Sequence record: SRR22947727_1880
Length of the DNA stretch: 63,298 nucleotides
Strand: one strand, 5' to 3'
The translations under genes and the position numbers were made by a program. The notes beneath the pieces are model-generated. The model saw only the letters and a list, made by a program, of their open reading frames with translations. It ran no database searches and was not told where the DNA came from. Shown here piece by piece: positions 1 through 57,272 of the stretch (position 1 is its first letter; the number at the start of each line of letters is the position of its first letter).

Positions 1-1
1 C

Positions 2-1144
2 GGTGGCGCCGCATCAGATATTCCTGTTGTCAAGCGTCTGAAAGAGCTTGGGTGGACGGTAATTACTGGCGGCACCGAGCCGAAGAGTCCGGCCCACCGT
101 TTGGCGGATGAATACCTTAGGTTTGATTACTCAAAGCCCGATGAAGTTCTAGGTGCCGCAAGGAAAGCAAAGGTCAGTTGCCTGATACCTTCTGGTCACG
201 ACAGGGCCGTATACCCAGCTGCGATTGCTGCACAAGAACTTGGACTTCCGGGTCATGATGCTCCAGAAAATGCCCTCAAATTGCATCGAAAAGATTCGCT
301 CAAGGAAAAATTGAGGCAGGTTGGAATTTCATCTCCTCAAAACTTTGGGAAAGCGGAAGCAAAGGACTTTCTGCGAGACGGAGGACGGCTAATTGTGAAG
401 CCAGTTGGTCTAGCGGGTGGCCGAGGGATTTCGAAGGTCACCACACTTCTCGAATTGGAAAGTGCTCTAGCTCATTCAGAAAGAGTCTCAGGCGATTCGA
501 GCTTCGTCATTGAAGAATTCATCGAAGGCACCAACCATGGAGTGAGCCTCATGGTAGTAGATGGTCAGAGTCACATTGTCTTCAAGGACAACGAATATTA
601 CGGCTCGAATAGATTCAGGGTAGCGGGAGCTCACTCTAAATCTGATTTAACAGCAAATCAACTCTTAATAGTCAATGGTTGGATTCAATCTCTTGTGGAA
701 GACATGAGGCTGGCGGACGGGCTCGTACATCTCCAGGTTATCCTCCAAGGAAACCAAGTCCAAGTGCTCGAAGTAATGCGCAGAATTCCAGGAGACGGGT
801 ACCCTTTGCTTCCCGAGCTTGCCAGCGGCATAGATTTTATGGGCATTTTTCTAGGGGCATATTTGGGTGAAGACTCGCTAGCCGATTCGGCCAATCGTCC
901 CACACGGAATGTTATCCGCCATGTAGTCGGCGCGCAGGAAGAGGGACGGTTCAATGGGATTGCGCTTGCTCCCGAAACATCCGATTTCTTAATTCATAGT
1001 TGCATTTGGGCCAAGAATGGAGAGCAAGTTTTTGACAAAATGAATTGGTCCGCGGGTGCCTTGTACTTCTCGTGTTCCGACAACGATTTCCCCTCCCTAC
1101 TTTCGTCGGTGCGCGAGAGCACTACCGCATCCGTCGAACGTTAA
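2..1144 (+). CDS. ATP-grasp domain protein (5'-partial, frame open from the window edge)
   Basis: Frame from nt 2 reads GGAASDIPVVKRLKELGWTVITGG...LADEY. ATP-grasp motifs IVKPVGLAGGRGI, VIEEFIEG, VHLQ and LEVMRRIPG are present. Confidence 0.8.
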   Translation, partial: GGAASDIPVVKRLKELGWTVITGGTEPKSPAHRLADEYLRFDYSKPDEVLGAARKAKVSCLIPSGHDRAVYPAAIAAQELGLPGHDAPENALKLHRKDSLKEKLRQVGISSPQNFGKAEAKDFLRDGGRLIVKPVGLAGGRGISKVTTLLELESALAHSERVSGDSSFVIEEFIEGTNHGVSLMVVDGQSHIVFKDNEYYGSNRFRVAGAHSKSDLTANQLLIVNGWIQSLVEDMRLADGLVHLQVILQGNQVQVLEVMRRIPGDGYPLLPELASGIDFMGIFLGAYLGEDSLADSANRPTRNVIRHVVGAQEEGRFNGIALAPETSDFLIHSCIWAKNGEQVFDKMNWSAGALYFSCSDNDFPSLLSSVRESTTASVER

Positions 1145-1236
1145 GAAATTGCCGCTCGAACACGGCGGAAGCAAGGGCTTAGGAGACACCGAAATAGAAG
1201 CCAAGTAGACGTCCTAGGCTGCCAGATTGAGGAACC

Positions 1237-1947
1237 CTAATCGCCAACACCCACAATGTCTTCTACCGCTAATTTCGACCTCTCCGGAAATGACAACAAT
1301 AGGGACGTGCCAAAGATTGGAAAATGGTTGTCGCCGGAATTCAGGCTGTCGAGCGCTTCTTTCACGTCCGGATGAAGTGACGATCCGTAATCGTGCCATA
1401 TACAGATTGACCGTTCAGAGGCAATTGTTTCAACGAGCTTATAGTCCGACAGCACGGTTTCTTTCGAGTGACCTCCGTCTACAAAAAACAGATCAAACCG
1501 CCTATTCTCTAGCAACCTGAACAACTCGGTAGACGTGCTGTCCAACTCTACCTCGCTAATGCGATTCCGAGCTCTTGTATTCAGGGCATCGAGATATGGG
1601 GTTCCTCGCGCATCTCGAACACTTGTGAGATATCGGTCATTCTGTCCCCCAGAAACTAGTGACAACTCTGGATCCGGCAAATCGCCCCCCAAACGCGGAA
1701 AATCTATGGTTGTAATTTCCACATCTTCAAGATTACGGACCAGAATTGACGTCGTGTAGCCGGTGTAGGTTCCAAACTCAAGGAGAAATTTCGGCCGAAT
1801 TATTCGTGCGAGGGCCAAAATCACAAAAGACTCAATTAGGGTTGGGCTTCCGATGTCCACTGGTGGAAATGGGTGGGACACCTCTTCCACAACAATATCT
1901 AGCTTCGAGAAAATTTGCTTCGGCTTCAGACCCCTTACGGCTTTCAT
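1237..1947 (-). CDS. Class I SAM-dependent methyltransferase (Methyltransf_24/CmcI-like)
   Basis: LEFGTYTGYTT, FDLFFVDGGHS and IWHDY motifs. Start moved to MKAVRG (ATG 1947), which overlaps the upstream stop as ATGA. Confidence 0.8.
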   Translation of the reverse strand: MKAVRGLKPKQIFSKLDIVVEEVSHPFPPVDIGSPTLIESFVILALARIIRPKFLLEFGTYTGYTTSILVRNLEDVEITTIDFPRLGGDLPDPELSLVSGGQNDRYLTSVRDARGTPYLDALNTRARNRISEVELDSTSTELFRLLENRRFDLFFVDGGHSKETVLSDYKLVETIASERSICIWHDYGSSLHPDVKEALDSLNSGDNHFPIFGTSLLLSFPERSKLAVEDIVGVGD

Positions 1948-2810
1948 GTCGACGGTACTTCTTCTACGAGTTCGGGATATTCCGAGGCAAAAAAGAAAGG
2001 GTACTTGTCTCTCGCTGTCAACCACAATCGACTGGCTGAGCGCACTCTGTGAACGTCAGCGTATCTGGCTGTAAATACCCAGCGAGAACTTTCCAATGTT
2101 CTATTTTTCCCGCTGGCATGCAAGAGCAAACTGTGTTGGACCACTGCGTCTCCCACAGCAATCTCAGGGAGCTCCTCTGAGTTTTCTTGGAAATCGGACG
2201 AGTCTTGCTCAAGACCCGAAAGCCGAAAATACGAGGAACTGTGAAAGTTATTCTTTTCACCCCGAACAAGTTCAACCGGCCGAACTGATAAACTTCCTCG
2301 AACTACCCTCATTCTCCCCATCTCTGAAGAGACAGGCTGAATTGGAGCCCAGACGGTTGCAGCGTCTTCCGCAAGAACGTTGTAAGGGAAATCTTGATGC
2401 CAAGTCAAGATTGTGGAATCATCGCCAGGTCTGTCCACACGAAGGACGTTACTGTCTCCCACAGTCTGAATAGCCGTTGTCTCGAACAACCTCCTCATCA
2501 CGGTTCTCACTGAATCGTGGCCCACCAAAGTTGCAAATGAGGATAGGTCCCCAGGAAGCGTCGATAGGTACCGACGGTTTTCGCCGAGTGACTCCCAAGC
2601 GCGGTTGTAAAGCTGGTCAAGATTGTCTTCTTGGCCGAAAACTATTTCTCTTGAAGCGAGAAGGTAGCGCAGAGTCTCGGAGATTTCGTCAACGACCGCC
2701 AGGAGGTTTTCGGCAGGAAACAAATTCTTTATAAAGAAGAATCCGTCCTTATAGAAAGCATCGCGAGCCTTCGCGAGGTCTTTGTCTGAAGCATCGACCC
2801 ACACATACAT
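1944..2810 (-). CDS. Phytanoyl-CoA dioxygenase (PhyH) family Fe(II)/2OG dioxygenase
   Basis: FYKDGFFFIKNLF N-terminus, WHQD (HxD), TVWAP and HSLLLHASGKNRT..SRW motifs. Confidence 0.85.
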   Translation of the reverse strand: MYVWVDASDKDLAKARDAFYKDGFFFIKNLFPAENLLAVVDEISETLRYLLASREIVFGQEDNLDQLYNRAWESLGENRRYLSTLPGDLSSFATLVGHDSVRTVMRRLFETTAIQTVGDSNVLRVDRPGDDSTILTWHQDFPYNVLAEDAATVWAPIQPVSSEMGRMRVVRGSLSVRPVELVRGEKNNFHSSSYFRLSGLEQDSSDFQENSEELPEIAVGDAVVQHSLLLHASGKNRTLESSRWVFTARYADVHRVRSASRLWLTARDKYPFFFASEYPELVEEVPST

Positions 2811-2848
2811 TTTTCATCAACTCCTCAAATTGAAACCCGGACAAACCA

Positions 2849-3988
2849 ATGCTATTTGAGCCCTACGATAGGACCGTGAAGTACTGGGGAGAGAGTTTTC
2901 TTGACAATGACTGGAGGCTAAGGGTTCTACCTAATGCTTCTCCTTCTGCAGATTTTGCCAAGATAGCATCCCTTCGTTCTCAGGACGCGCCAATTTTCTT
3001 GATTGGCAGGAACGTCGATTCCGAAGTCTTGGCTAATCATCTACCAATTCGCGGGATTATTGACGATTTTGATCACTCAGACTGGCAGAGCAAACGGGCT
3101 TTCCGATCAACTGAGGTTCCAAACGACTCAATTGTGATCACTGCAGTAAGTTCGATCTACCCGAAATCCGTCGAGAGCATGATTCTGGAGAAGCTTTCGA
3201 ACGCGTCGATACTTAGCTATCGCGACATCTATTTGGCCAACTCAAATGACATTCCACAACCGGCTTATGGAATCAGTGTTATGAATGTGAGCTCGAACTT
3301 GGAAACGCTGAATTGGTGCCAGCGCAAAGTTGTTTCGCCGCATGATTTGGAAGTCCTTAGGTCAATCCTTAATTTTCGAATGACGGGATTGACGGAATTT
3401 TTAGAGAACACAATGTTGCCTTCTGGAGAACACTATCTCCACCCAATGCTGCACGAACCGATAGAAACCTTAGTTGACTTTGGAGGCTTCGATGGCGAGA
3501 CCGCACTGAACCTTCACAGGTTTCTTGGCGGGCCCAGAAATGTAATAATTTACGAGCCTGACCACGCCCATAACGCTGAAATTCAGCAAAGGTTCAACGA
3601 AATTAAGTGCAACCTCGAAATTAGGAACGTTGCCGTTTCCGACCGCGAAGCGCGGGGGGAGCTAAACGATTCGGGTCTATCTAGTGCCACTTTTAAGGAA
3701 GCTCGGGAGGGAGAAGTGGTCCAGGTTGCACTGGGCTCGGAGAATTTTCCAGAGGGTCCCTCCGTTTGGAAATTTGACATTGAAGGAGCGGAACTCCGGG
3801 CGCTGTCGAGTGCGCGGACACTCCTTGAGAGGGGTGACGTGCGTCTTGCAATTTCGATTTATCACGACCCCACCCATTTATTTCTGATTCCAGCAATGAT
3901 CAGACAAATATTCCCTAACGCTCAGATTGGATTTGGCCACTACACCGAAGGGTGGTCGGAATCTGTCATGTATGTAGTTCCCGGTTAG
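2849..3988 (+). CDS. FkbM-family methyltransferase
   Basis: VDFGGFDGET, YEPD, KFDIEGAELRAL and LAISIYH motifs. Confidence 0.85.
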   Translation: MLFEPYDRTVKYWGESFLDNDWRLRVLPNASPSADFAKIASLRSQDAPIFLIGRNVDSEVLANHLPIRGIIDDFDHSDWQSKRAFRSTEVPNDSIVITAVSSIYPKSVESMILEKLSNASILSYRDIYLANSNDIPQPAYGISVMNVSSNLETLNWCQRKVVSPHDLEVLRSILNFRMTGLTEFLENTMLPSGEHYLHPMLHEPIETLVDFGGFDGETALNLHRFLGGPRNVIIYEPDHAHNAEIQQRFNEIKCNLEIRNVAVSDREARGELNDSGLSSATFKEAREGEVVQVALGSENFPEGPSVWKFDIEGAELRALSSARTLLERGDVRLAISIYHDPTHLFLIPAMIRQIFPNAQIGFGHYTEGWSESVMYVVPG

Positions 3989-4463
3989 GTCGTGGCTCTC
4001 CATTTGGTGAACACTCGGACCGGCGGCACCGAATCAACGCTAAAGATATTCGCGAACGGTTCGACTAACGTCTCACCCATTTCGAACCATTCCAGTACTT
4101 GGGCTCCGTGGTTCTGTGAACGCTTCTTGAATCATGAGCTTCTGGCCACCTTGCGACCAACGGTAAGCGCGGGTCCAAGAACTCATCGAGATAGCGCTTC
4201 GGTTTGTTCCTTCACTCATTCGGAATCGTACCTTTACACGTGGCAATATTTCCGCATCCGTGACTCTATGAAAAATTCCCAGAGCTAGCCAAACCTAACG
4301 CACCACGAGCGCGAACCAAGGCCATGGTTCTCGCTCGGCAAGTATCACCACAACTAATACCGAATCCTCTCCAGAGAGCACCCAGCTTTGCCTACGCTGT
4401 CGCCGGCATCCAGCCAAAAAGAGGAGGTAAATACCTGCGTAAGTAGCACTGTCTTCGTTGCAG

Positions 4464-5093
4464 CTAGTTCTCCAAGAACCACCCTTTGAGGAGTCGAAGA
4501 CCCTCCTCGCCACTCTTTTCGGGATGGAATTGGGTTGCAAATATTGAACCGGAGCGGATAGCGGCAGGAATCTCATCACCACCGAAAGCCGTTGTTGCAA
4601 GAATTTCCGATTCCAGCGCATTGGTCAAGAAATAGGAATGGTTGAAATAAGCAGTCCTTAGGTCAGGTGATGAAACGCTTTCACCACCAGTGCGCCACGT
4701 GAGGGGCGCCCACCCTGTGTGCGGAATTCGTACGTCTTGGTTGATGGCGCTGTGTTCCCGCAAATGCACGATATCTCCGGTGATGAGCCCAAGCCCGCTC
4801 GTAGCCCCGTTCTCAAAACCGTGTTGAGCGAGTAACTGCATACCTAAACAAATGCCTAGCGTAGGCTTCCCAGACTGAGTCCAGGCGACAATCTCATCTC
4901 CCAGCTTCCTGCGAGCAAGGTGCTCCATTCCATAGATGAAAGACCCCACTCCCGGCAACACCACGTGCGAATAGGTCCGAAGTTTTTCCGGCTCTGCCAC
5001 AAGCTCGGCGTCGATACCCTGACTCACGAACGCCCTCAGAACGTTCAAGATATTTCCAGCACCGTAGTCGACGATCGCAACTTTCCTAGCCAT
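4464..5093 (-). CDS. hisH: HisH-like glutamine amidotransferase (WbuY-type, glycan locus paralog)
   Basis: VAIVDYGAGN, LPGVGSF, LGICLGMQLL and QFHPEKSG triad motifs. Start MARK at 5093 overlaps the end of hisF. Confidence 0.9.
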   Translation of the reverse strand: MARKVAIVDYGAGNILNVLRAFVSQGIDAELVAEPEKLRTYSHVVLPGVGSFIYGMEHLARRKLGDEIVAWTQSGKPTLGICLGMQLLAQHGFENGATSGLGLITGDIVHLREHSAINQDVRIPHTGWAPLTWRTGGESVSSPDLRTAYFNHSYFLTNALESEILATTAFGGDEIPAAIRSGSIFATQFHPEKSGEEGLRLLKGWFLEN

Positions 5094-5862
5094 TTTCTGG
5101 CTCCAACTCTCGAACAGCGATTCCTCGGTCACGGCAAGCTTGCCGGCACTCCACCACTGTGAAGTTGCCCCAATGCAGGCCAGCCCCCAACGCCACGCCA
5201 TCGCAACCAGCTTCCCCCAGTGCCTGAGCGACGTGGGCGGGGGTGCCGGCACCACTCGAGGCAATAAGCGGGACACTAGCTGCATCCCGGACCGACGAGA
5301 GCAACGATAGGTCAATTCCTCGGCGGGTCCCGTCTCGATCAACATTGGTGATTAGGAACTCCCCTGCGCCGTAATCCTGAGCCTTGGTGACCCAGTCGAT
5401 TACCCCAATACCGGTAGGTTGGCGCCCGGCTTCGGTGTAACACTCCCATCCGTGTTCAGGGGTGGTCTTTGCTTCTACGTGGATTACCACTGCCTGAGAA
5501 CCATATTTCTCGGCGATTTCGGAGATCAAGTGTGGTCGAGTAAGTGCTGCTGTGTTGATTGCTACTTTGTCGGCACCCGCCCGAAATAAAGCGTTTGCGT
5601 CTTCGAGTGATCTGATACCCCCACCCACAGTGACCGGCACAAAACACTCTGCCGTTACTTCTCTAATCAGCTCCACCATCGAGTCTCTCCCGTAGAGGCT
5701 CGCGACCGTGTCAATCATGACGATTTCGTCCACACCTTGGTCGTAGTACCTCCTTGCGACGTCCGCTACCGGCCCAACGACCCGCAGGCCCTCCATTTGG
5801 ATGCCTTTGATTACGTTCGGACCCTTAATGTCTAGGCGAGAGATTATTCTGAGGAAGGACAT
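5086..5862 (-). CDS. hisF: HisF-like cyclase subunit (WbuZ-type ammonia channel)
   Basis: RIISRLDIKGPNVIKG, VGGGIRSLED, GADKVAINT, GAGEFLITNVDRDGT. Lies in a glycan locus, not a his operon. Confidence 0.9.
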   Translation of the reverse strand: MSFLRIISRLDIKGPNVIKGIQMEGLRVVGPVADVARRYYDQGVDEIVMIDTVASLYGRDSMVELIREVTAECFVPVTVGGGIRSLEDANALFRAGADKVAINTAALTRPHLISEIAEKYGSQAVVIHVEAKTTPEHGWECYTEAGRQPTGIGVIDWVTKAQDYGAGEFLITNVDRDGTRRGIDLSLLSSVRDAASVPLIASSGAGTPAHVAQALGEAGCDGVALGAGLHWGNFTVVECRQACRDRGIAVRELEPENG

Positions 5863-5868
5863 GTCTGC

Positions 5869-7080
5869 CTAGTGCCAGACAGCGTGCTTCAACACCCAGT
5901 CGCCGTTCCTTTTTTCCCACAGGTGTGGAGACCTAAATGACTCAACGGTGGCGTGAAAGCTGTCCTCTGTATGCGAAATGTAGTCAAGGAACTCGGGAAG
6001 AAAACGATCAGGAAACTCTTGATCAAATTTCTGAACGAGGGCGACGCCCTCGTCGCGGGTGATTTTTCCATTACGAATCTCTTGGGCTGCATCGTAACTG
6101 GCTCGACCGAGACCAAACTTCGCCAGCGTTGTGTAGTAGTGGTAGGGGTCAATCTTGTCGTCGATGCTGCTGTATTTCGAGTATGAACCCTGTGTTCTCT
6201 CGCTGTTGGGTTCAAAGCCCGTGTTCTCCGCTGCATAGTAGAAGCACTCTTGGGGGTCCCACTTCAGGTAGTACCCCAGATAGTGCACCTCGATGCCTGA
6301 CGCTTCCAAATCGCGTGCGTCCGGCGCGATGTAGGGGGAAAAATCATCAATCGTGAAGTCTGTGCTGTTGATGATGTCCTGAATCGTCTCCCCGCCTAGC
6401 CTAATGTCAGAGACGGATTGCTTCGAGAAAAAACTTTTATCCATCGTTGGAACAAAGTTCTCGCTCGCATCATTGCCGTATTCAGCTTGATTTTCCCCAT
6501 ACATCACCAGAGGAATGCCAAACCTCTGTGCAATGAGGGGCCCAATAATTCTTTGCCCCACAATAAAGGGCTGAAAAGGGTGCAGAAGGTTATCAAACGC
6601 CAATTTTGTCAGGTGACGGTGCAGCCTTCCGTTTGGCGTAAAGAGCATGTTGTCCAGGCCACCAACATGCATCCAGTTTTGAAAGTTCTTCCAACCAATT
6701 TCGGTGTAAAGGTGTGGTGCCCAAGTAACTGTGAGCGGGTTCATGCCGTATTTGTACTTCAGAATATGTGCGGTGAACGCGCTATCTTTTCCTCCCGATC
6801 CCGGGACGACCACGTCGTATCCATGAGACTTGACCGCTCTGTCTGCCAAGGCAATGAGTTGCTGTTCGCGCATGTCCCAATCAATGTCGGCGTTCTTGAC
6901 GTCGTTGTAGCGACATGCATCACACACTCCGTCGCCATCGAAGCCGATGGTCGACTTGAGGTCAGCCGCGCTCGCCAAAAACTCCCTCGTTGAGCTGGGC
7001 CTCTGGTTACTGATGACACAGGACGAACAGAACTTCACATCGAGGGGCAGTCCATACCGCCCAGTTGTCTCTGTGCTCAC
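5869..7080 (-). CDS. N-acetyl sugar amidotransferase (WbuX/PseA/PtmG family)
   Basis: CxxC...CDAC Zn motifs, PP-loop PGSGGKDS, YGENQAEYG and IRNGKITRDEG. Adjacent to hisF/hisH paralogs. Confidence 0.9.
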   Translation of the reverse strand: MSTETTGRYGLPLDVKFCSSCVISNQRPSSTREFLASAADLKSTIGFDGDGVCDACRYNDVKNADIDWDMREQQLIALADRAVKSHGYDVVVPGSGGKDSAFTAHILKYKYGMNPLTVTWAPHLYTEIGWKNFQNWMHVGGLDNMLFTPNGRLHRHLTKLAFDNLLHPFQPFIVGQRIIGPLIAQRFGIPLVMYGENQAEYGNDASENFVPTMDKSFFSKQSVSDIRLGGETIQDIINSTDFTIDDFSPYIAPDARDLEASGIEVHYLGYYLKWDPQECFYYAAENTGFEPNSERTQGSYSKYSSIDDKIDPYHYYTTLAKFGLGRASYDAAQEIRNGKITRDEGVALVQKFDQEFPDRFLPEFLDYISHTEDSFHATVESFRSPHLWEKRNGDWVLKHAVWH

Positions 7081-8222
7081 TATTTCTCTTTCTCGCCAAA
7101 ACCGGGGCGATCAATAAATTGCTTTTGGATGGGTTCTTCCCAACGACTAGCCTGCTGGAGAATTCCGACAAACCGCTCCACGCTGCGCCCGTCGCCAAAG
7201 TTTTTTTCCGGCACTCGCACCGCCGCTTCCGCTACTTTCAGGGACCGTGATACGGCCTCAGCGGTGATGTCCGTGTCTATGACCAAGGCTGATCGCACAC
7301 GATTATTCTGCCGGCTTCCCAGATTTATAGCTGGAACACCGTAGTGGGGAGCTTCTCGAATACCGGAGCTGGAATTTCCAATGATGAAGTCCGCCTTTCG
7401 CAAAATCGAGAGGAAATACTCAAAACGCATCGAGGGGAAAAAGTGAAGTGTAGGAATATCCTGGTAATCGCCAAAAACACGCCTAATTTTGTCCGAGCCC
7501 CAGTCGTTATTGGATTCGATAACTATCATCTCTCGGCCATCTGCTACCAGTGCGTCCATCACGACCCGGGTGTTCGCTTCAATCGACTCCAATTCGGTCG
7601 TTACCGGGTGAAAAATGAGAATGCCATACCGGTCAAGATGGAGCCCGTAATGCCCCAGGGATTCCTCGATGCTTGGCAAATTAGGCGAATCCATCGCGTC
7701 AATGTCGGGTGACCCAATGACGAAAACGTCCTCGTTCGCTTCGCCCAACTGAAGAAGACGATTGCGCGCCTCCTCATTGGAAACAAAGTGCCAATGGGAG
7801 AGCTTGGACACAGCGTGTCGCAGCACCTCGTCAACGGTGCCAGAAAGCTCACCACCCTCGATGTGGGCGACCCGAATGTTATTGAGGGTCCCCACAATCG
7901 CGCCCGCGAGAGCTTCGACCCGGTCACCATGCACTACGACCAAATCGGTTGGGCTTTCTTTGACATAATCTGACAAGCCAGTCACGGTCTTAGCCAACAC
8001 AATGTCCATCGAATCACCAGGGGCTTGATTGACAAATGGATAGACCGGCGCCAGGCCCGAACCGACCACTTCTTCCCAGGTAGAGCCAAAGCGTTCCAGC
8101 ATGTGCATACCGGTGACAAAGATCTGTGGGACGAAACCCTCGGTGTCTCGCATCGCACCAATAAGTGGCTTCAGCTTTCCAAAATCTGCTCGCGTACCCG
8201 TCAGAAAAAGTGCCTTTTTCAT
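7080..8222 (-). CDS. neuC: UDP-N-acetylglucosamine 2-epimerase (hydrolysing)
   Basis: TGTRADFGKLKP, VTGMH, HGDRVEALA, HIEGGELSGTVDE, GNSSSGIREAP. Confidence 0.95.
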   Translation of the reverse strand: MKKALFLTGTRADFGKLKPLIGAMRDTEGFVPQIFVTGMHMLERFGSTWEEVVGSGLAPVYPFVNQAPGDSMDIVLAKTVTGLSDYVKESPTDLVVVHGDRVEALAGAIVGTLNNIRVAHIEGGELSGTVDEVLRHAVSKLSHWHFVSNEEARNRLLQLGEANEDVFVIGSPDIDAMDSPNLPSIEESLGHYGLHLDRYGILIFHPVTTELESIEANTRVVMDALVADGREMIVIESNNDWGSDKIRRVFGDYQDIPTLHFFPSMRFEYFLSILRKADFIIGNSSSGIREAPHYGVPAINLGSRQNNRVRSALVIDTDITAEAVSRSLKVAEAAVRVPEKNFGDGRSVERFVGILQQASRWEEPIQKQFIDRPGFGEKEK

Positions 8223-9274
8223 CGAGCGACATCACCATCCTCGAGCGCGGAGCGCTTCAACTGGAACCCTGCGGGAGCTGACTCAATCACTCTGGTCCCA
8301 TAGAGCTCCTCAAGGTCAGTCGGGCCAAAGTCGCCACCGCCTGGCCTCTTGACCCAGATGTTTTGCGGACCTAGAACATCCCCGGGTTGCAAATCTCGGG
8401 TGGCCACCACTGAAGCAAAAGCAAAGGCGATGGTAACCGCTTCCTCATCAGCGGGCTCCTTCGAGCCTCCCGATGCTTCAAACACCTCCTGCGAGGCCTC
8501 GATAAGTTGGCGGGCCTCGTCTGGGGTCATCGAACACGCGATATCCGGGCCCACTCGACTCGGCGAATCTGTGAAATGGCGCTCCAGGATTCGAGCGCCA
8601 AGGGCCACTGATGCGATGCAGGCACTGTTGCTTGTCGAATGATCAGACAAACCAAGAACAGCATCAGGAAAAGCGTCTGCGAGTGCGCTGAGCCCTCCCA
8701 GTCGAATCAAATAGTTCGGTGTTGGATACAAATTGGTGGTGTGCAAGAGCGCAAACGGGACACCGGAATCTCGCAAGATTTCAACAGAGGGAGCTACTGA
8801 CTCGATGGTATTCATCCCCGTGCTCAAAATGACAGGCTTCCCGATAGCCGCAATGTGCTTCACTAGCGGGTAGTTGTTGCATTCCCCGGAGCCAATCTTG
8901 TACAGCGGAACATCCCAACTGGCAAGCCGGTCGGCCGCCTCTCGAGAAAATGGCGTGCTAAAAAATACGCCACCCCTGTTGTTGACGTGTTGCATCAACG
9001 CATATTCGTCGGCTTCACTCAGCGTGCAACGCTCGATGACCTCGTAAATAGAAACGTCTGCATTTCCGGGTTTGATGGTCTTAGCTTCTTCGGACATCTC
9101 TGCATACGGAATATGAGTTTGGTGCTTGATAAACCTCACCCCGGCGTCCAAAGCAGCATCAGCCATTTGCCGGGCAACCGCGAGTGAACCCTCGTGGTTA
9201 ATACCGATTTCAGCGACGACCACCGGCGCATGACGGTCGCCGAATGAAACACCACCCACCCTAAATTCCGACAT
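8219..9274 (-). CDS. neuB: N-acetylneuraminate synthase with C-terminal SAF/antifreeze-like domain
   Basis: AEIGINHEGS, KHQTH, STPFS, KIGSGECNNYP, LSTGM, GLSDH, LERHFT, VKRPGGG. Start MSEFRVGG at 9274. Confidence 0.95.
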   Translation of the reverse strand: MSEFRVGGVSFGDRHAPVVVAEIGINHEGSLAVARQMADAALDAGVRFIKHQTHIPYAEMSEEAKTIKPGNADVSIYEVIERCTLSEADEYALMQHVNNRGGVFFSTPFSREAADRLASWDVPLYKIGSGECNNYPLVKHIAAIGKPVILSTGMNTIESVAPSVEILRDSGVPFALLHTTNLYPTPNYLIRLGGLSALADAFPDAVLGLSDHSTSNSACIASVALGARILERHFTDSPSRVGPDIACSMTPDEARQLIEASQEVFEASGGSKEPADEEAVTIAFAFASVVATRDLQPGDVLGPQNIWVKRPGGGDFGPTDLEELYGTRVIESAPAGFQLKRSALEDGDVAR

Positions 9275-9959
9275 GCGCTGCAAGAGCCCTCGCCATCTCA
9301 AGATCAGCGGGAGAGTCAATATCCACGCTGGCCATCTCATCCATCTGAAAAAAAAGCGCCCCATCAATGGGCACTTCCGACCTGGCACTGAATTCTGCCT
9401 CAGAAAAAACGTAGATTGCTCCGTTCGCATAAAAGCGCTGCGGCAAATCCTGGCGGTTTGTGCCATGACCAGAGTTCATTTCCGGGTCTACACGAATTCG
9501 CTCTCCGTCCAGCACTACCATTTTCTCGGGGAGCTGCTTAGCCGAGCACACGGAAACCAAGCTTTCAGCTCCACCTCTCTCGAATGCATCCAGTGCTGCC
9601 TCAACGTGATGCCGAGTCCGGAACGGTGAGGTTGGTTGTAAGTAAACTATTAGCAAAGGGGCACCATCACCGATTTTTTCCTGTCCAGCAAGAAAGTCTC
9701 TGACGACCTCGGCGGCAGTCGCATCACTGTTCAATGCATCTGAATTCCTCATGTGTACGCTTGCGCCCAGCCTCGACGCTTGATCAGCAATCTCAGCATC
9801 GTCGGTGGAGACCACAACTGAGCTGATTCGACCTACAGACTGAGCAGATTCAATGGCGCGGGCCAAAAGAGTCTTGTCGCCCACAACTTGGAGATTCTTT
9901 CTTGGGACACCGAGCGAGTGTCCCTTCGCAGGAATCAAGGCGACATAATTGAGACCCAT
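9261..9959 (-). CDS. neuA: CMP-N-acylneuraminate synthetase (cytidylyltransferase)
   Basis: ALIPAKGHSLGVPRKN, VVSTD, LQPTSPFR, RQDLP, NGAIY, VDID. TAGGCT lies 7 nt before ATG 9959. Confidence 0.93.
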   Translation of the reverse strand: MGLNYVALIPAKGHSLGVPRKNLQVVGDKTLLARAIESAQSVGRISSVVVSTDDAEIADQASRLGASVHMRNSDALNSDATAAEVVRDFLAGQEKIGDGAPLLIVYLQPTSPFRTRHHVEAALDAFERGGAESLVSVCSAKQLPEKMVVLDGERIRVDPEMNSGHGTNRQDLPQRFYANGAIYVFSEAEFSARSEVPIDGALFFQMDEMASVDIDSPADLEMARALAAHVGI

Positions 9960-10079
9960 ACCGGATAGCCTACCTTCCTGGTCGAAGCAAAAACGGGCTC
10001 GGCCGAGGAGCATCAAACCAGCGATGTTGTGAGCGGTACCCTTGAAAATTCAGTGTCACAAATCAGGCAGGAAGACGAT

Positions 10080-11039
10080 ATGGGGAACCTCACTACTCGC
10101 CTAGAAGGGTTAAAGCGAGACGCTGTTGAGTCTGCGAGCGGTGGCCGTGTGCGCGATTGGGCTTCGTTACGTCTCGCCCATAGAGACGCCGCCGCAACCC
10201 GACGGGCCGCAAACACACGAGGAGTGTCAACGCTTGACACAAGAGACCCCCGCTCGCTCATGGGGGACCAAGTCCCGGATACGCTCTTCATCCTAGGTTC
10301 GGGTCCATCAGTCAATAGGCTCAGCTCCCAGAATTTCGAGGAAGTGGAGAGAGGGTTTTCCGTAGGCGTAAATTCGTGGATTTTGCATCCGTTCGTGCCT
10401 AATGTCTACGCATTCGAGCCATCGGAAAGTCTCGATTATCTCAACGAGAGCCAAGTGCTTCGGGAGGTTCTGGCCAGGAAGCTTGAAGAGGGTAACGACT
10501 CACGAATACTCCACCTCCGACCACATGCCTCGACAGCTCAGGCACTTGAGGTGCTTCCCCCGGACTCTCTTGCACACCGATTTTCCTACTATGGCCGCAC
10601 AGCGCTGACGACACAATTAGTCAGCAATCTCGAAAGAGACCTCACCCAGTTGTTGCAAGCTCATTCCCGGGAAAGGCTTCCATCCGAGATTTTGCTGGAC
10701 TCTGGGGGAAGTGTAGGCAGAATGGTGTCGCTCGGTATCTTCTTCGGATTCCAAAAAATTGTGCTTATAGGAGTCGACCTGAGCCGCAATCAGTACTTTT
10801 TTGAAGATGATCCAAGTTATTTAGAGGATTTAGGGATCGCCTCCTACAATCCCTGGAAATCAAGGACAGAGCACCACGAGACTCAGCAGCGCACTAATCG
10901 AGCTTTTGTAGCTACGGAGTTTCTGGGAGCACTTGCAAAGGTGTCCAAGGCCCGCGGCGGCCCGGAAATGTTTGTGGCAAACAACCAATCACTGTTGTCA
11001 CAGGTGATGCCTCAGTATGAGTGGTCTGGCAGAGATTAG
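10080..11039 (+). CDS. Putative nonulosonate/sialyl-transferase (Maf/CstII-like)
   Basis: FILGSGPS and KIVLIGVDL motifs resemble Maf and GT42 sialyltransferases. Divergent from neuA. Start uncertain (10029 or 10080). Confidence 0.55.
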   Translation: MGNLTTRLEGLKRDAVESASGGRVRDWASLRLAHRDAAATRRAANTRGVSTLDTRDPRSLMGDQVPDTLFILGSGPSVNRLSSQNFEEVERGFSVGVNSWILHPFVPNVYAFEPSESLDYLNESQVLREVLARKLEEGNDSRILHLRPHASTAQALEVLPPDSLAHRFSYYGRTALTTQLVSNLERDLTQLLQAHSRERLPSEILLDSGGSVGRMVSLGIFFGFQKIVLIGVDLSRNQYFFEDDPSYLEDLGIASYNPWKSRTEHHETQQRTNRAFVATEFLGALAKVSKARGGPEMFVANNQSLLSQVMPQYEWSGRD

Positions 11040-12286
11040 TAGCCTTGCGCCTCGTGGGGCGCAGATTCAAGGGCAACTAGGGACTCGAGGAAGTGATCCG
11101 GATCGAGATGGTAGTCGGCAACACGAGGGTCAACCCTCAGGCCGGAAGTGAGGGTCGAGGGTGGGTAAAAAATCTGGCGGTAGTGGACGTCGCTGATGTA
11201 GGCGACGTTCTCGTACCAGTTGTCCTCCGGCTCGCCTGCCCAGGTCCACAACATCGCCTTAGCTTCAGGATTCGCGAAAATTAGGTTGGCCCACGCGGCG
11301 CCGTGAGGGCCAACAATTGCCTCGGCCTCACGGAAAAGTTTGACAGACTCAAAAAAACTCAGATCGTCCAAGTAGACGGGCTCGTAGCCTAACTTCCTGG
11401 AACACTCAATGATTTCGTCCTGGTTGTAGCGCCTCACCTCAGAGGGTTTCCGCGCCAGAAACAACTTTCTGCCTTTCACAACACGGTGTTTCTCAAGACC
11501 AAGCTGTGCCACGATGGAATCGCGGTAGCTCAAGAATGGTTCCTTGACAATACCGATTCGTGCTTCCCGTGATTCCACCATACTGCGAGGGTTTGGCCTC
11601 GTCACACCATCCAGCCGTATCAGGGACTTGACCTTTACCCACCGATCGCCGGGGACCGGGAGCAGGGTTCTCTCCTGAATCACCAGCTCCAACGGTTCCC
11701 TCCAACTTGGCCGCTCAAAAACAATCTCAGGCACGAGAAGCGGGTAGTCACGAAATGTGTCGGGAAGCAGCCGAGCGGCGAAAAGATTCGGAAGATTATC
11801 GATAACCCAGTGAAACCAATTGTGGGGTGCCATCGAGCCGGTAAAGATGCCGAGGTCGATGCTTTCTACCCCCCTCGGTTTTTGTACGAGAACGGAACTC
11901 CCCACTTGGTCGAGAATGCCCGCTATCTCAGTGTTCGGGAAGAACACTTTGGCCGGCTGAGCCAAGCCGGTATGGGGAACGAGGAGTGAGGACCCATCAA
12001 GTAGGAAACCACCGCGCCTATTGGCTGATAGTTGTACGTCTGAAAACAACCGGTAGCTCAGCTGAGCGCCACCAGCCGGAGCGAGATTCTGAAGTCCGCC
12101 GTCTCTCCACCAAGCTTGCACAAGGGGAGACTCCTTTTCCGCAAGGGCTACGGAAGGGGCACACTCGATTTCCTCTCTCACGCCCACTACCCGCCAGCGA
12201 TTAAGGCTCAGGAGTCGGATCAGCCAAGAGAGAGGAAGCGCACGGAATATTTTCCTGACCGCGATAGTCCACATCGCCAAAATCAT
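11036..12286 (-). CDS. Glycosyltransferase family 61 (DUF563) protein
   Basis: NWFHWVIDNLP, LFLARK...RRYNQDEI and LFREAEAIVGPHGAAWANLIF motifs. Confidence 0.85.
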   Translation of the reverse strand: MILAMWTIAVRKIFRALPLSWLIRLLSLNRWRVVGVREEIECAPSVALAEKESPLVQAWWRDGGLQNLAPAGGAQLSYRLFSDVQLSANRRGGFLLDGSSLLVPHTGLAQPAKVFFPNTEIAGILDQVGSSVLVQKPRGVESIDLGIFTGSMAPHNWFHWVIDNLPNLFAARLLPDTFRDYPLLVPEIVFERPSWREPLELVIQERTLLPVPGDRWVKVKSLIRLDGVTRPNPRSMVESREARIGIVKEPFLSYRDSIVAQLGLEKHRVVKGRKLFLARKPSEVRRYNQDEIIECSRKLGYEPVYLDDLSFFESVKLFREAEAIVGPHGAAWANLIFANPEAKAMLWTWAGEPEDNWYENVAYISDVHYRQIFYPPSTLTSGLRVDPRVADYHLDPDHFLESLVALESAPHEAQGY

Positions 12287-12361
12287 CTGTCGGCTCCTCG
12301 ATCCTGGGGACGGGTAGGCTTACGCTGTTTCCACGCTAAGAAGAACTGGAGCTACTGCATC

Positions 12362-13102
12362 ATGGAGAAATCTAGTCCCTCGAATGTGCATCGAACCCAT
12401 GACGAATTTTACCTCGAAATCCCGGCGGGCGATGAGCCTAAGGATTCTTTCAAGAGTTCGGCAGACCTTCTCGAGAAGCTATTGGGTCCAGGGTTGGCAG
12501 GTCGTGAAGTTTTGGACGCTGGGTGTGCAGTGGGTCACTTTCCGCACTACCTCGCGACCAGGTTTCCGGGAGCAAAGATCGAGGGACTCGAGTATCTCCC
12601 CCAACTTGTGAGCAAAGGTAAAGAGCTCTTTCCCGACGTGACTATCCGTGAAGGTTCGATTTTTGATGGAAATCCCTCGAACAACGGGCGATTTGATGCG
12701 ATCACCATGTTGGGGGTCCTGCAGATTTTTGACGACATCGCGCCAATCATCTCCAACCTGGGCTCCTGGCTGAAACGTCCGGGAGGAGCGTTGCTGGTTC
12801 ACGGGCTTTTCAATCCCTTCGAATTTGACGTCTTCACTCGTTATCGCAAGGCTGGAGAAGGCGATGCGAGCGAGATGGAAAACGGGTGGAACATCGTGTC
12901 ACAGCAGACCTTTGCCACCGTATGCGAGACCGCTGGCGCTCAGTCCGTGATTTTCCATAAGTTCGACATCAGTGTTGATCTAACCCCCAGTGAGAGCGAC
13001 CCCGTCCGAAGCTGGACTGAAAAGTTAGAGAACGGGGAACGCCAAATTGTCAACGGATTGCACATTCGGCAACCCCAGTACATTGCCGAAGTCATCTTTT
13101 AG
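12362..13102 (+). CDS. Class I SAM-dependent methyltransferase
   Basis: VLDAGCAVG and FDAITMLGVLQIFDD. Start reassigned to ATG 12362 because the longer ORF overlaps the GT61 gene. Confidence 0.85.
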   Translation: MEKSSPSNVHRTHDEFYLEIPAGDEPKDSFKSSADLLEKLLGPGLAGREVLDAGCAVGHFPHYLATRFPGAKIEGLEYLPQLVSKGKELFPDVTIREGSIFDGNPSNNGRFDAITMLGVLQIFDDIAPIISNLGSWLKRPGGALLVHGLFNPFEFDVFTRYRKAGEGDASEMENGWNIVSQQTFATVCETAGAQSVIFHKFDISVDLTPSESDPVRSWTEKLENGERQIVNGLHIRQPQYIAEVIF

Positions 13103-13188
13103 TCGTTGAGAGCAGAGCGAACAATGGGGGGCGCATATTCGAGGGCCACTAACCCCAGTGTGGCCGGGCGTGGGGCGTCCTTTCGTCC

Positions 13189-14184
13189 ATGAACACCATA
13201 GATTTGGATCATTGCTCGGGTGACTGTCGTGGCGATAGCCACCTCCACTACTCCGACCGCTGCGTCCAGCTTTCCCGCCTCGACCCCCCCACAGAGTCAA
13301 ATGCCGGGGGCACTGGTAGCGCGTTTCATTTCGTCACTTTCGCAAACCAGAGTTTTCTCCCCTCTCTTCGTCGCATCAGGGCACAAGCCAGAGCAATGGC
13401 AGTTTTTTCTACAATCTCAGCTGTCACAGAGAAGGATCTCTCTGCTGACTTCGCTCAACATTTCAAATCACTTCTTACTCCCCCTAGCAAGGGATTCGGT
13501 TACTGGTCATGGAAACCGGAGGTGATTTCCCATGCACTCAGTGAGATTAGGGATGGAGATTTTCTGCTCTACGCTGACGCCGGCTGTCACCTCAACAAGT
13601 GGGGGGCCCAACGCCTGCGGACTTATGGTGCATGGCTCGCTAACGCTCCCCATGACGTCCTCTCTTTTCAGTACCGACCCCTGAGTTTCCCGCCTCGGGG
13701 TTACCCCCATGACGTCATGTCCATCATCACGGATCGTCAATACACGAAGATGGAAGTCAGGAATTACTTCGAGAAGCGCTTTGATACTCGGTCCGAGGTT
13801 GATAGCCCAGCGGTCGCTGCCGGAATCATACTTATCCGGAAGTCGCCTCAATCAACCGGACTCATTGAATTGTGGCGTCAGCTTCTGTGGGACAACCCTG
13901 ACCTGCTCACTGACTCACGTGATCCAACAATCCAGGACCCAGCGTTCATCGAGCCTCGACATGACCAAAGTCTCTTTTCCCTCCTTCTGAAGCACTTCGG
14001 CGGTGAGACCGTTTCGGCCTACGAAACTTGGATTCCCAAGGAAAAGGGTAAGAAGACAAACTGGCGTCCGCTCGGGGATTACCCAATCTTGGCAAAGCGG
14101 GACCTCAGACCCTCGTTCATGTCGCCTTTGTGGAGACAGAGAGCCCGTGCTCGTCTTGGCGGCGTCATCGACTCGCTTCGATAG
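13189..14184 (+). CDS. Hypothetical glycan-modifying protein (GYWxWKP / YxDAG / RHDQS family)
   Basis: FVTFAN, GFGYWSWKPEVI, LLYADAGC (DxD-like) and RHDQSLFSLL. True start uncertain. Confidence 0.6.
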   Translation: MNTIDLDHCSGDCRGDSHLHYSDRCVQLSRLDPPTESNAGGTGSAFHFVTFANQSFLPSLRRIRAQARAMAVFSTISAVTEKDLSADFAQHFKSLLTPPSKGFGYWSWKPEVISHALSEIRDGDFLLYADAGCHLNKWGAQRLRTYGAWLANAPHDVLSFQYRPLSFPPRGYPHDVMSIITDRQYTKMEVRNYFEKRFDTRSEVDSPAVAAGIILIRKSPQSTGLIELWRQLLWDNPDLLTDSRDPTIQDPAFIEPRHDQSLFSLLLKHFGGETVSAYETWIPKEKGKKTNWRPLGDYPILAKRDLRPSFMSPLWRQRARARLGGVIDSLR

Positions 14185-15069
14185 TCAAGCTGCGTCAAAT
14201 ATTCGAGACTCCCAATAGGAAAGTCTCGCTCCCTCCAAGCTGAATGTGTCGGACGACAACACGGCTTCTGCTTTGCGCAGTACTTCGCGGAAATTCGCCA
14301 AGCCGTTCCACGACCGAAGCCCGATGAAGGGAAGCCGTAGCTCTCGGGCGAGCGCTGCTTGGTAAGAATTATTGAGAACCACCGGCAGCGCTCCAACATA
14401 AAGGGCCTCCCAGAATCGATGGGTATCAAGGCCGTTTCCGCGAGGGCAAACAACTAGGCGGTAATCACGCATTTGCCGTAGATACGCAATTCTTCCTGCC
14501 GGGGTGTAGTCAGAGTGCCCCTCCGCGACGTGATCCAAGGTGTTAGATCTTTTTGCCACCACGCGCCTGTGCTTCGGTGCGGTAGCGCTGTTAAAATTGG
14601 CATAGAGAGCAAGCCTCTGCTCGACCAAGGGCTCTGCCATCACGGTCGCAATGTGCGCTTGATTACCTAGGACGGGGTGCAGAGAAGTTTCTGAGGTCGG
14701 ATTACACAAGCCAAGTGGCAAACGAACGGCGCCTAGCGCAGCATTGATGCTCCGCGAGCAGTCCAAATTTGAACAATAAACTCTTCCGCCTGAGTTGAGT
14801 TTCATCAACAATAGAGAAACACAACGGGTAACCAAATCAGAGTGCCCGACCACAACATCACCTCGGTAGCCTGATCCAACCAAGGGTTGTTGCACGTGGC
14901 CTCGCCACAGACCGCTTGTGAACACAAAATCACGCTTAATGTAACGTGGATTGTCCAGCCTGCTGGACCGAGACAAAAGCGCTTCCTGAAAGAAAAAATC
15001 ACCCGATTCTGCGATTGATCGTGCCTCGTGGCGAAGCCAATCTGTCATAAGAGACTCCCAGAACTGCAT
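14185..15069 (-). CDS. Exostosin (GT47)-like protein
   Basis: LYANF and VVCPRGNGLDTHRFWEALYVGALPVV match the exostosin C-terminal motif. Start uncertain (15048-15126). Confidence 0.65.
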   Translation of the reverse strand: MQFWESLMTDWLRHEARSIAESGDFFFQEALLSRSSRLDNPRYIKRDFVFTSGLWRGHVQQPLVGSGYRGDVVVGHSDLVTRCVSLLLMKLNSGGRVYCSNLDCSRSINAALGAVRLPLGLCNPTSETSLHPVLGNQAHIATVMAEPLVEQRLALYANFNSATAPKHRRVVAKRSNTLDHVAEGHSDYTPAGRIAYLRQMRDYRLVVCPRGNGLDTHRFWEALYVGALPVVLNNSYQAALARELRLPFIGLRSWNGLANFREVLRKAEAVLSSDTFSLEGARLSYWESRIFDAA

Positions 15070-15100
15070 GCCTCGACCGAACCTAAATCGTCGAAAGCGG

Positions 15101-16351
15101 TCACAACAGGCTCCGGAACTCTTCAAGCATCTGCAACCGCGTCTCCTGCAACCTTTGATTCCGTCTTTCAGTGGCGGGAAGCAGGTCCGGGAAGTATTTT
15201 TGTGTGCTTTCTCGAAACACCGGGTCCGAGAGTTCCTCCACGAGGCGAACGTTCGGCATCAAGTCAGCGTTCATGAAATCAGCTCTTTCCAGCCACCAGT
15301 GAACGAAATCCGGGTGGCGCTGGTCGGCCCCCGGGAAGCCTTTCGCCTTGGGGTGGACGAGGGGATCAAGTCGTTCTCTGAAGCTAAGCTCCGAAACAAC
15401 ACCGTCCCAATCGCTCGCGAGTTTGTCTAACAGCGATCCAGCGGGAATAAGTAATGGAATTCCGAGCGTAGCGAGCTCAAACAAGGTCATCGTGCTGGTG
15501 GTGTAGGGGACATAAAGAACGACATCAACGTGAGCCAGCAGTTCCCAAGAGTACCTTTTTCCGAAATAGTCACTAGCCGAAATCCACGGAGCGCCGAGTG
15601 CGGTGGCGATCTCTCTTTCTAACTCCTTAGACCGGCTTTGGACGATTCGGACATTAGGAATTTTGCTTCTATCGACAGCGATATAATCGCACACGGAAGG
15701 CACAATGTCTAGCTGTCTTTCGAGAAAATGGGCTGCGTACTCTGCATCCCCTCTGTTATTGGCAAATAACAACAACTTCCCAGAATCAGAAAGTTCTCGA
15801 ATCTCGTCGTCTAAGCGTTGCCACCGTTTTACGTCGCTGCCAAAAGGATGTTCATAGCGAATTGCCGACACCGCAAGAATCGGCTTGCCAAGAGACGAGA
15901 AAAGCCGAATAAAACCAGTGGGGTAGGTGACGATAAAGCCATCGAAACACTGCAAGAACCTGCCGTAACGCCTGAGAAAACTTTGAATTCTCTCCTCAGT
16001 AAGGTCCGACCAATTTTCGCTGTCAATGGCGAACACAGGGTCTGGATCAACAAAGAATGACCGAAACACAAAATTGTGTTTCGAGAGTGACCACGAGACA
16101 AGCTTGACATCGGATAACCCCGCCAGCCCTGCCTGAATATCTGCAATCACCGACACGTGGCAATCAAGGTTGAAAACCCACTTTCTCCGCGAAAATCTGC
16201 GGAGAAAAGGGAAGAGAGCAACGAAAATGTTCAGCTGAAAGCTGCGCAACCCTCTCCGCGTCGTTCTCATGGCAGTCAACAGCCAGCGCTGCCCGCTCAG
16301 ACGAAGGCTCTTGAAGGGGTTCTGCGCCGCTACGTCATTATTCAAGACCAT
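15101..16351 (-). CDS. Hypothetical protein, probable glycosyltransferase
   Basis: 416-aa ORF with FNLDCHVSVIAD and a GT-B-like YVPYTTSTMTLFELATLGIPLLIP segment, located between GT genes. Confidence 0.5.
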   Translation of the reverse strand: MVLNNDVAAQNPFKSLRLSGQRWLLTAMRTTRRGLRSFQLNIFVALFPFLRRFSRRKWVFNLDCHVSVIADIQAGLAGLSDVKLVSWSLSKHNFVFRSFFVDPDPVFAIDSENWSDLTEERIQSFLRRYGRFLQCFDGFIVTYPTGFIRLFSSLGKPILAVSAIRYEHPFGSDVKRWQRLDDEIRELSDSGKLLLFANNRGDAEYAAHFLERQLDIVPSVCDYIAVDRSKIPNVRIVQSRSKELEREIATALGAPWISASDYFGKRYSWELLAHVDVVLYVPYTTSTMTLFELATLGIPLLIPAGSLLDKLASDWDGVVSELSFRERLDPLVHPKAKGFPGADQRHPDFVHWWLERADFMNADLMPNVRLVEELSDPVFRESTQKYFPDLLPATERRNQRLQETRLQMLEEFRSLL

Positions 16352-18988: not shown

Positions 18989-19064
<76 letters not shown>

Positions 19065-57269: not shown

Positions 57270-57272
57270 GGC

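Follow-up and report, generated by a model that had tools for sequence, protein, structure and literature searches.

The closest described counterpart of the locus reported here is found in the lipopolysaccharide (LPS) locus of Legionella pneumophila, where open reading frames (ORFs) 28–22 form one operon that holds, next to each other, the same six functions as our gene set (PMC3766260). ORF28, a homologue of ptmG, is credited there with converting CMP-Leg5Ac7Ac, an activated N-acetylated (Ac) legionaminic acid (Leg), to the 5-acetamidino (Am) form CMP-Leg5Am7Ac, and Campylobacter PtmG (Cj1324) is likewise described as turning the 5-N-acetyl group of a CMP-nonulosonic acid into an acetamidino group (PMC3766260; SugarBase preprint). 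Here we analyze 63,298 nucleotides (nt) of DNA from sequence record SRR22947727_1880, the whole of which we call the window, and which carries at positions 4464–9959 a minus-strand run of six co-oriented genes, neuA-neuB-neuC-wbuX-hisF-hisH. This cassette is best filed with the known PtmG/N-acetyl sugar amidotransferase (NASAT) cassettes that amidinate nonulosonic acids, as a variant with a predicted product of its own. The product that we favor, in a judgment poised evenly between right and wrong, is CMP-Neu5Am, a CMP-activated neuraminic acid (Neu) with a 5-acetamidino group, made from UDP-N-acetylglucosamine (UDP-GlcNAc).

The window shares with Legionella the order NeuA-NeuB-NeuC, but its WbuX stands fourth in the run, while the Legionella counterpart comes first. 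The flanks differ as well: in Legionella a NeuD acetyltransferase and an aminotransferase adjoin NeuC, whereas none is nearby in the window or in most of the related loci that we call type A (defined below). The step described for Campylobacter PtmG is the one proposed for WbuX, but the Campylobacter Leg pathway runs on GDP-linked precursors and LegB, LegC, and LegH, and the window has no such genes. In Neisseria meningitidis, SiaC is of the same lineage as the window's NeuB, but the epimerase SiaA is of another type and there is no amidotransferase. Escherichia coli O145 resembles the window in uniting sialic acid genes, an amidotransferase, and a HisH/HisF pair in one glycan cluster; there, however, the genes are not contiguous, identity to the window's proteins is 34% for NeuB and 29% for NeuC, and NeuC falls in another clade. 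Two sugars resemble the predicted product in being mono-amino and 5-amidino. One is a putative CMP-Neu5Am of C. jejuni, a mass-spectrometric observation in the 2026 SugarBase preprint, whose peaks consistent with this compound make the chemistry plausible. The other is the 5-acetimidoylamino-3,5,9-trideoxy-nonulosonic acid known from Fusobacterium nucleatum 25586, a sugar that differs in its configuration and in being 9-deoxy. The predicted class of product thus has precedents. The C. jejuni signal is likely a side activity of PtmG, and the preprint, in its accessible part, proposes no dedicated Neu5Am gene set. Two other loci were considered as counterparts and rejected: a Sphingomonas exopolysaccharide locus, in which WbuX sits in another context, and a Leptospira cluster, which is a Campylobacter-type Leg cluster different from the window's cassette.

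The six genes, in the order in which they would be transcribed, are the following.

9261–9959, minus strand: neuA, opening gene of the operon; CMP-nonulosonate synthetase, 232 aa (Pfam CTP_transf_3, 71.8 bits)
8219–9274, minus strand: neuB, nonulosonic acid synthase of the SiaC lineage, 351 aa (Pfam NeuB, 205.9 bits, and SAF, 27.2 bits, both above their cut-offs)
7080–8222, minus strand: neuC, hydrolysing nucleoside diphosphate-N-acetylhexosamine (NDP-HexNAc) 2-epimerase of the type-A clade, 380 aa (TIGR03568, 371.9 bits against a cut-off of 235.9)
5869–7080, minus strand: wbuX, ptmG-type N-acetyl sugar amidotransferase, 403 aa (TIGR03573, 348.9 bits against a cut-off of 203.2)
5086–5862, minus strand: hisF/wbuZ-like cyclase-type subunit, presumed ammonia channel partner, 258 aa (Pfam His_biosynth, 207 bits, above 23.6)
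4464–5093, minus strand: hisH/wbuY-like glutaminase subunit, 209 aa (TIGR01855, 164.6 bits against a cut-off of 105.4)

From neuA to hisH the genes overlap by 14, 4, and 1 nt, are then separated by a gap of 6 nt, and overlap again by 8 nt; neuA opens with an ATG at 9959 that is preceded by GGAAGG. An earlier note, made from these letters alone, had described a six-gene operon with overlapping or near-abutting ends; the gene calls and junction lengths agree with it, and every motif that it quoted is found in the translations. Among solved structures, NeuA is nearest to two CMP-N-acetylneuraminic acid (CMP-Neu5Ac) synthetases, 6ifd with 110 bits and 1eyr with 88. NeuB keeps the metal-site histidine motifs GLSDH and ERHF as well as WVKRPG, and in HisH the catalytic Cys (GICLGMQ) and His-Glu (QFHPEKS) motifs are intact. 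WbuX has the PP-loop SGGKDS and a tetracysteine, CSSC...CDAC, both of which align with the solved enzyme 8WEX; an SGGxDS PP-loop and a zinc-binding CxxC...CxxC are given as motifs of the amidotransferase family in PMC10607449. The hisF-like protein lies below the curated equivalog cut-offs (TIGR00735, 263.2 against 294.55; WbuZ, 249.1 against 299.7; AglZ/HisF2, 187.8 against 310), and a homologue of it (cluster 2) is present in 70 of the 80 related loci described next. A promoter and terminator scan of 3900–10400 was uninformative, with one promoter-like site against 3.7 expected and eight terminator-like sites against 6.4 expected.

A genome scan with WbuX gave 236 relatives, from which we kept the best 80 (63–87% WbuX identity, Legionella not among them); in these, the view extends up to 10 kb to each side of the WbuX match, and in the source genome it covers 63 kb. 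The cassette is not peculiar to the source organism but is shared by bacteria of many phyla, with the full set of six genes in 68 of the 80 loci nearest by WbuX. Ten of the other 12 loci are cut by a contig end no more than 350 bases from the genes found. By NeuC identity, 65 loci from 11 named phyla belong with the window's as type A; the six genes are complete in 60 of them and co-oriented within 9 kb in 58. The remainder comprises nine loci with another kind of NeuC and six with no NeuC in view, mostly on short contigs. Among the non-A loci that hold all six genes, seven of eight carry a LegB or PseB-like 4,6-dehydratase in or beside the block, and in most of the nine a short-chain reductase and a nucleotidyltransferase of the PtmE type are present too; the cassettes with LegB and PtmE share their WbuX/NeuB core with the window. 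The WbuX tree does not separate the cassette types, and the NeuB tree mixes them likewise; a shared WbuX/HisFH/NeuB/NeuA core has thus been joined to different epimerase and precursor modules, and NeuC and the precursor genes are what is exchanged between these cassettes. Beyond this set, tblastn of WbuX against plasmids gave nine records, all at 52% identity or less, and blastn of L079, a low-G+C (guanine plus cytosine) cassette, against all complete E. coli genomes gave no match. The closest relative in the WbuX scan is L001, from a metagenome-assembled genome of Pontimonas sp. (family Microbacteriaceae). Its locus is split into short ORFs (NeuA 145 aa, NeuC 213 aa, WbuX 314 aa), probably by assembly frameshifts, for which reason tblastn alone was used to establish which genes it contains.

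Other arrangements of the same genes occur within the 80 loci. A second cassette type, seen in L025, L038, L043, L050, L053, and L056 (also L004 and L024), joins LegB, a short-chain reductase (c29/c110), a LegG-like NeuC, and PtmE to the WbuX/HisFH/NeuB/NeuA core. Because no DegT aminotransferase is in view in five of the eight loci of this kind with all six genes, their gene content points to a nonulosonic acid of the same class as the Fusobacterium sugar, 9-deoxy, mono-amino, and 5-amidino. In 28 of the 80 loci, for example at L041:11210–12370, there is a gene, usually directly after WbuX, for a protein of roughly 386 aa that has a polysaccharide pyruvyl transferase domain (Pfam PS_pyruv_trans, 53.5 bits); the window has no homologue of it. 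Finally, L031 and L012 have WbuX-HisF-HisH with no NeuA, NeuB, or NeuC in view, L031 with flanks of 8.6 and 10 kb and PtmE adjoining HisF, L012 with an upstream flank of only 2.4 kb. It follows that the three amidotransferase genes can also move independently of those for the synthase.

The prediction of CMP-Neu5Am is carried by the genes that are missing around type-A cassettes. With NCBIfam and Pfam profiles on the 63 ORFs of the window, no precursor gene for Leg, pseudaminic acid (Pse), or N-acetylfucosamine (FucNAc) was found, and in a tblastn search (E < 1e-4) neither the window nor L001 gave a match to DegT, PseB/PglF, LegB, or PglD/NeuD, in line with the earlier statement that the window holds no Leg or Pse dehydratase or aminotransferase. 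The same four families are absent from 37 of the 49 type-A loci whose flanks both measure 4 kb or more, and from 52 of all 65. The whole set of 80 loci has only 18 genes for DegT-family aminotransferases, spread over 15 loci; acetyltransferases of the PglD/NeuD type are confined to two separate Leg gene sets, and true LegB to those same sets and the non-A cassettes. Pathways for modified HexNAc in these loci keep their precursor genes beside the synthase, and the separate Leg and Pse sets are contiguous. The only type-A locus with a PglD/NeuD-type acetyltransferase, L010, has it in its separate Leg set: one co-oriented run (L010:7106–20020) contains the type-A cassette, then a gene for a 466-aa protein (c39), and then, downstream, a complete LegB-LegC-PglD-NeuB-NeuC-PtmE set. 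Therefore, two nonulosonic acid pathways lie side by side in this locus and, since it has a full Leg set of its own, the type-A NeuB and NeuC are unlikely to be Leg enzymes there. With no 4,6-dehydratase, 4-aminotransferase, or N-acetyltransferase as part of type A, the simplest substrate is UDP-GlcNAc, and CMP-Neu5Am is the product predicted from it.

The kind of WbuX points to the sugar on which it would act. At 497 bits over residues 7–401, its closest solved relative is the L. pneumophila NASAT 8WEX, which we take to be the product of the ptmG homologue ORF28. To the WbuX of E. coli O145, an enzyme assigned to FucNAc (PMC10607449), it is 24% identical over 139 aa only. This nearness to the Legionella enzyme and distance from the O145 one place WbuX in the nonulosonic-acid type rather than the FucNAc type, most likely with the nonulosonic acid itself as substrate. 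As a proxy for Legionella, the WbuX of L044 was uninformative, matching 8WEX at 507 bits, the same as the window's.

The relationships of NeuB and NeuC carry less of the argument than the earlier note had placed on them. The window's NeuB scores 422 bits across 343 residues against N. meningitidis SiaC (1xuu) and 135 bits against PseI 8h2c, has the SiaC stretch 72–81 (PGNADVSIYE) in identical form, and retains both the metal-site motifs and the one with the equivalent of Arg314. The asserted closeness to SiaC thus holds, but it does not serve as evidence for Neu5Ac. Relatives match SiaC more strongly still, at 501 bits for another type-A NeuB and 525 bits for a NeuB that occurs with the 4,6-dehydratase LegB and PtmE (window 8219–9274, L008:5446–6489, and L025:5745–6785 were compared; range 422–525 bits). 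Since NeuBs beside dehydratases score even higher, SiaC likeness is not diagnostic of Neu5Ac, and whichever product is made, likeness to the meningococcal enzyme is unusable for calling it. In the NeuB tree the window lies inside a clade of 69 rows with a Shimodaira–Hasegawa-like approximate likelihood ratio test (SH-aLRT) value of 99, with the NeuB of E. coli K1 and the LegI-like copies outside; SiaC is not itself a row of this tree, its kinship being a pairwise score. The lineage does hold a proven Neu5Ac synthase, SiaC, and the neuB and neuA of Legionella reportedly complement E. coli K1 mutants (Lüneberg and colleagues, 2000).

For NeuC, the claimed closeness to Neisseria SiaA fails: the match to 6vlb is 56 bits and covers residues 3–177, the N-terminal half only. 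Among solved structures, the window's NeuC comes closest to human GNE (170 bits) and Acinetobacter baumannii LegG, a 2-epimerase for N,N'-diacetylbacillosamine (diNAcBac; 160 bits). Type-A NeuCs score 170 and 186 bits against GNE versus 117 bits for the NeuC of E. coli K1, which offers weak side support for placing type A relatively nearer to the UDP-GlcNAc-using human enzyme. In a quick tree of 73 rows, the window's NeuC falls in a clade of 61 with a long stem and an SH-aLRT of 100; it is 29–31% identical to the NeuC of E. coli K1 and O145. The K1 NeuC and NeuB group with LegG- and LegI-like copies, outside the window's clades, and the O145 NeuC joins that of K1. An approximately unbiased (AU) test (p = 0.00135) rejects a clade that unites the window's NeuC and those of K1 and O145, both proven in the Neu5Ac pathway; the grouping under test was picked with the tree already at hand. 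The conclusion of the earlier note, a 5-acetimidoyl-neuraminic acid pathway, is retained here by way of gene linkage and the WbuX type; its premises are not, as NeuC is not SiaA-like and the likeness of NeuB is undiagnostic. A side observation is that the meningococcal sialic acid pathway, judged from these comparisons, looks like a mosaic: SiaC belongs to the NeuB lineage of these cassettes, but SiaA, the epimerase that works with it, is no relative of their NeuC.

From the observed gene order, family membership, intact motifs, clades, linkage statistics, and the modeled fold of a neighboring protein, we infer the substrate of NeuC, the step of WbuX, and the final product as follows. NeuC would hydrolyze and 2-epimerize a nucleotide-HexNAc, most simply UDP-GlcNAc, NeuB would condense the free sugar with phosphoenolpyruvate (PEP), and NeuA would add CMP. 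WbuX, a PP-loop enzyme of the PtmG/NASAT type, is predicted to convert the N-acetyl to an acetamidino group with ATP and ammonia, adenylating the 5-N-acetyl carbonyl so that ammonia can replace the oxygen; HisH would take this ammonia from glutamine, and HisF would channel it. The protein with a putative sialyltransferase fold encoded at 10080–11039 may then transfer the sugar of CMP-Neu5Am to a cell-envelope glycan, and the neighboring methyltransferases may modify it. A stronger form of this proposal, that type A is a dedicated, self-sufficient pathway from UDP-GlcNAc to CMP-Neu5Am which has spread horizontally across at least 11 phyla, is one that we entertain seriously while leaning slightly against it.

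Several observations weigh against CMP-Neu5Am. The window's NeuB lies below the NCBI equivalog cut-off for N-acetylneuraminate synthase (TIGR03569, 337.6 against 399.65), and its active-site segments, mapped via the SiaC alignment, do not differ between cassettes that have dehydratases and those that lack them, so that NeuB supports neither product. NeuC, NeuB, and NeuA are 27–35% identical to the enzymes of E. coli K1 (UTI89) and O145:H28, and the substrate choice of a type-A NeuC cannot be read from its sequence. Eleven well-flanked type-A loci out of 49 do carry a DegT aminotransferase, which in most cases belongs to a separate Pse, Leg, or dTDP-sugar set, and L017 and L029 have an unclassified dehydratase-like short-chain dehydrogenase/reductase (SDR) and an aminotransferase about 8–9 kb downstream of WbuX. 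The island that holds the cassette in the source genome runs off the left end of the window. To our knowledge, Legionella, with its Leg5Am7Ac, is the only biochemically studied system with such a gene set. Its NeuC reportedly refuses UDP-GlcNAc (Glaze and colleagues, 2008).

These points are best accommodated by a Legionella-type pathway, in which unlinked genes would supply UDP-diNAcBac, NeuC, NeuB, and NeuA would make CMP-Leg5Ac7Ac, and WbuX/HisFH would turn it into the known product CMP-Leg5Am7Ac. We regard this as a real contender that is nonetheless probably wrong. It draws on the contiguity of the six functions in the Legionella operon, on the match of 497 bits between WbuX and the Legionella enzyme, on the cut island, and on the fact that the same NeuB lineage also serves cassettes with 4,6-dehydratases. 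Legionella itself sets a precedent for unlinked precursor genes, since its dehydratase, lpg0966, is encoded away from the LPS locus; the aminotransferase, ORF21, adjoins the operon (PMC3766260). In addition, the acetamidino nonulosonic acids of firm structure in the surveyed literature are derivatives of Leg, 8-epilegionaminic acid (8eLeg), and Pse, together with one 9-deoxy sugar. What tells against it is, above all, the lack of dehydratase, DegT, and PglD/NeuD genes documented above for the window, L001, and most well-flanked type-A loci, in data where modified-precursor pathways keep such genes by the synthase. The Legionella layout, with acetyltransferase and aminotransferase beside NeuC, is seen in no type-A locus, and L010 has its type-A cassette in addition to a complete Leg set. 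Were Leg5Am7Ac nevertheless the product, the cassette would be an ordinary member of a known pathway, and the lesson would be that its precursor genes are usually unlinked.

A different order of steps, or a different sugar, is improbable. WbuX might act first, on UDP-GlcNAc or on N-acetylmannosamine (ManNAc), leaving NeuB to condense an already amidinated sugar; alternatively, NeuC might use another common nucleotide sugar, which would lead to an isomeric or otherwise modified mono-amino product. Such schemes gain room from the consulted portions of PMC10607449 and the SugarBase preprint, in which the amidination step is shown for no family member, and from the mention of acetimidoyl UDP-HexNAc in the latter. 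Further mono-amino products are also indicated by the LegB/reductase/PtmE cassettes, five of eight of which have no DegT gene in view, and by the trideoxy sugar of Fusobacterium. However, PtmG is described as acting on CMP-Leg5Ac7Ac (PMC3766260). The window's NeuB also keeps WVKRPG, the motif with the equivalent of SiaC Arg314. As this residue is reported to contact the N-acetyl group, the motif argues for a substrate that is still N-acetylated at the NeuB step.

Least probable is an arrangement as in E. coli O145, where NeuABC would make Neu5Ac and WbuX/HisFH would amidinate a further N-acetyl sugar in the glycan that carries it, for example FucNAc, GlcNAc, or a ManNAc uronate. The O-antigen cluster of O145:H28 strain RM13514 does bring together neuD-neuB-neuA-neuC, an N-acetyl sugar amidotransferase, and hisH, and its O antigen is reported to hold both Neu5Ac and FucNAm (Feng and colleagues, 2005); the acetimidoyl UDP-HexNAc forms of the preprint fit here too. 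Nevertheless, a FucNAm-type reading is largely rejected by the distance of the O145 WbuX against the 497-bit match to the Legionella enzyme, by the absence from the window of an fnlABC-type or any other HexNAc-modifying gene, by the co-occurrence of the complete gene set in 68 of 80 loci, and by the overlap of wbuX and neuC by one base in the window where O145 has wzx, wzy, and a further gene between them.

The earlier note had known of no description of the product. That part needs amending in view of the C. jejuni peaks, and in the literature searched the term Neu5Am appears in the SugarBase preprint only; for a dedicated, widespread Neu5Am cassette, we found no description in the same literature. 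The preprint also reports that Am forms shift to Ac under acid hydrolysis with 1,2-diamino-4,5-methylenedioxybenzene (DMB) labelling. If CMP-Neu5Am is indeed the product, surveys that rely on acid hydrolysis would therefore have under-reported it and may have missed it, and many genome annotations of sialic acid synthesis would need a second look. Six genes would then suffice to make a new sialic acid from UDP-GlcNAc alone in a laboratory host. Sialic-acid-type sugars govern how phages, predators, and immune lectins see bacterial surfaces, and an amidino group cancels the negative charge of the sugar. If type A is the dedicated, widespread pathway entertained above, a net-neutral amidino sialic acid would be common on the surfaces of environmental bacteria.

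Two genes near the cassette may act on its product.

10080–11039 (start probable), plus strand: protein of 319 aa with a putative sialyltransferase fold, encoded divergently from neuA; a candidate for transfer of the CMP-nonulosonate
17632–18375, plus strand: TylF-like methyltransferase (Pfam TylF, 25 bits)

The AlphaFold model of the first has a mean predicted local distance difference test score (pLDDT) of 93.4 and a predicted template modeling score (pTM) of 0.92. In Foldseek, C. jejuni CstII and CstI are its best matches (E 2e-6, probability 1.00), followed by the Maf glycosyltransferase 5mu5 (E 2.4e-5), and the Pfam match to MptE-like is weak, at 20.5 bits below a cut-off of 34.6. As the template modeling (TM) scores to the sialyltransferases are only 0.40–0.52, we consider it a candidate transferase of the CMP-nonulosonate and not a proven one. 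A collection of 5.8 billion sequences contains only 50 homologues of it, all of them without a Pfam domain or annotation; several of these share longest-contig sizes (20122, 20931, and 9615) with NeuB relatives, which suggests that the two are linked. The TylF-like protein is 26% identical over its full length (E 2e-24) to a methyltransferase (c67) that lies inside the type-A blocks of L067, L072, and L074, and is, by this inferred link, a possible modifier of the sugar. In 13 other loci, genes for methyltransferases that use S-adenosylmethionine (c14, c31) are part of the block or adjoin it. The proximity of such genes to the cassette, in the window as elsewhere, recalls the N-methylation of the Legionella amidine by a methyltransferase (PMC3766260).

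The cassette lies in a region of about 1–19 kb with a G+C fraction of 0.49–0.54, compared with 0.58–0.61 beyond it, and window positions 1–19000 are likely a horizontally acquired glycan island. Besides the genes above, it encodes an ATP-grasp protein (cut by the start of the window), a Methyltransf_24 protein, a PhyH dioxygenase, an FkbM methyltransferase, glycosyltransferases of the GT61-like, GT47-like, and GT2 kinds, and three ORFs that fall in no family (3992–4288, 13189–14184, and 15101–16351). From about 19 kb onward the window carries actinobacterial housekeeping genes, including those for menaquinone synthesis, cytochrome c maturation, and aspartyl-tRNA synthetase (AspRS). Within this part, and unrelated to the cassette, positions 55182–59532 hold a homologue of 1-aminocyclopropane-1-carboxylate (ACC) deaminase (541 bits) and a dgcN-dgcA pair, for the N-acetyltransferase DgcN and the N-acetyl-D-Glu racemase DgcA.

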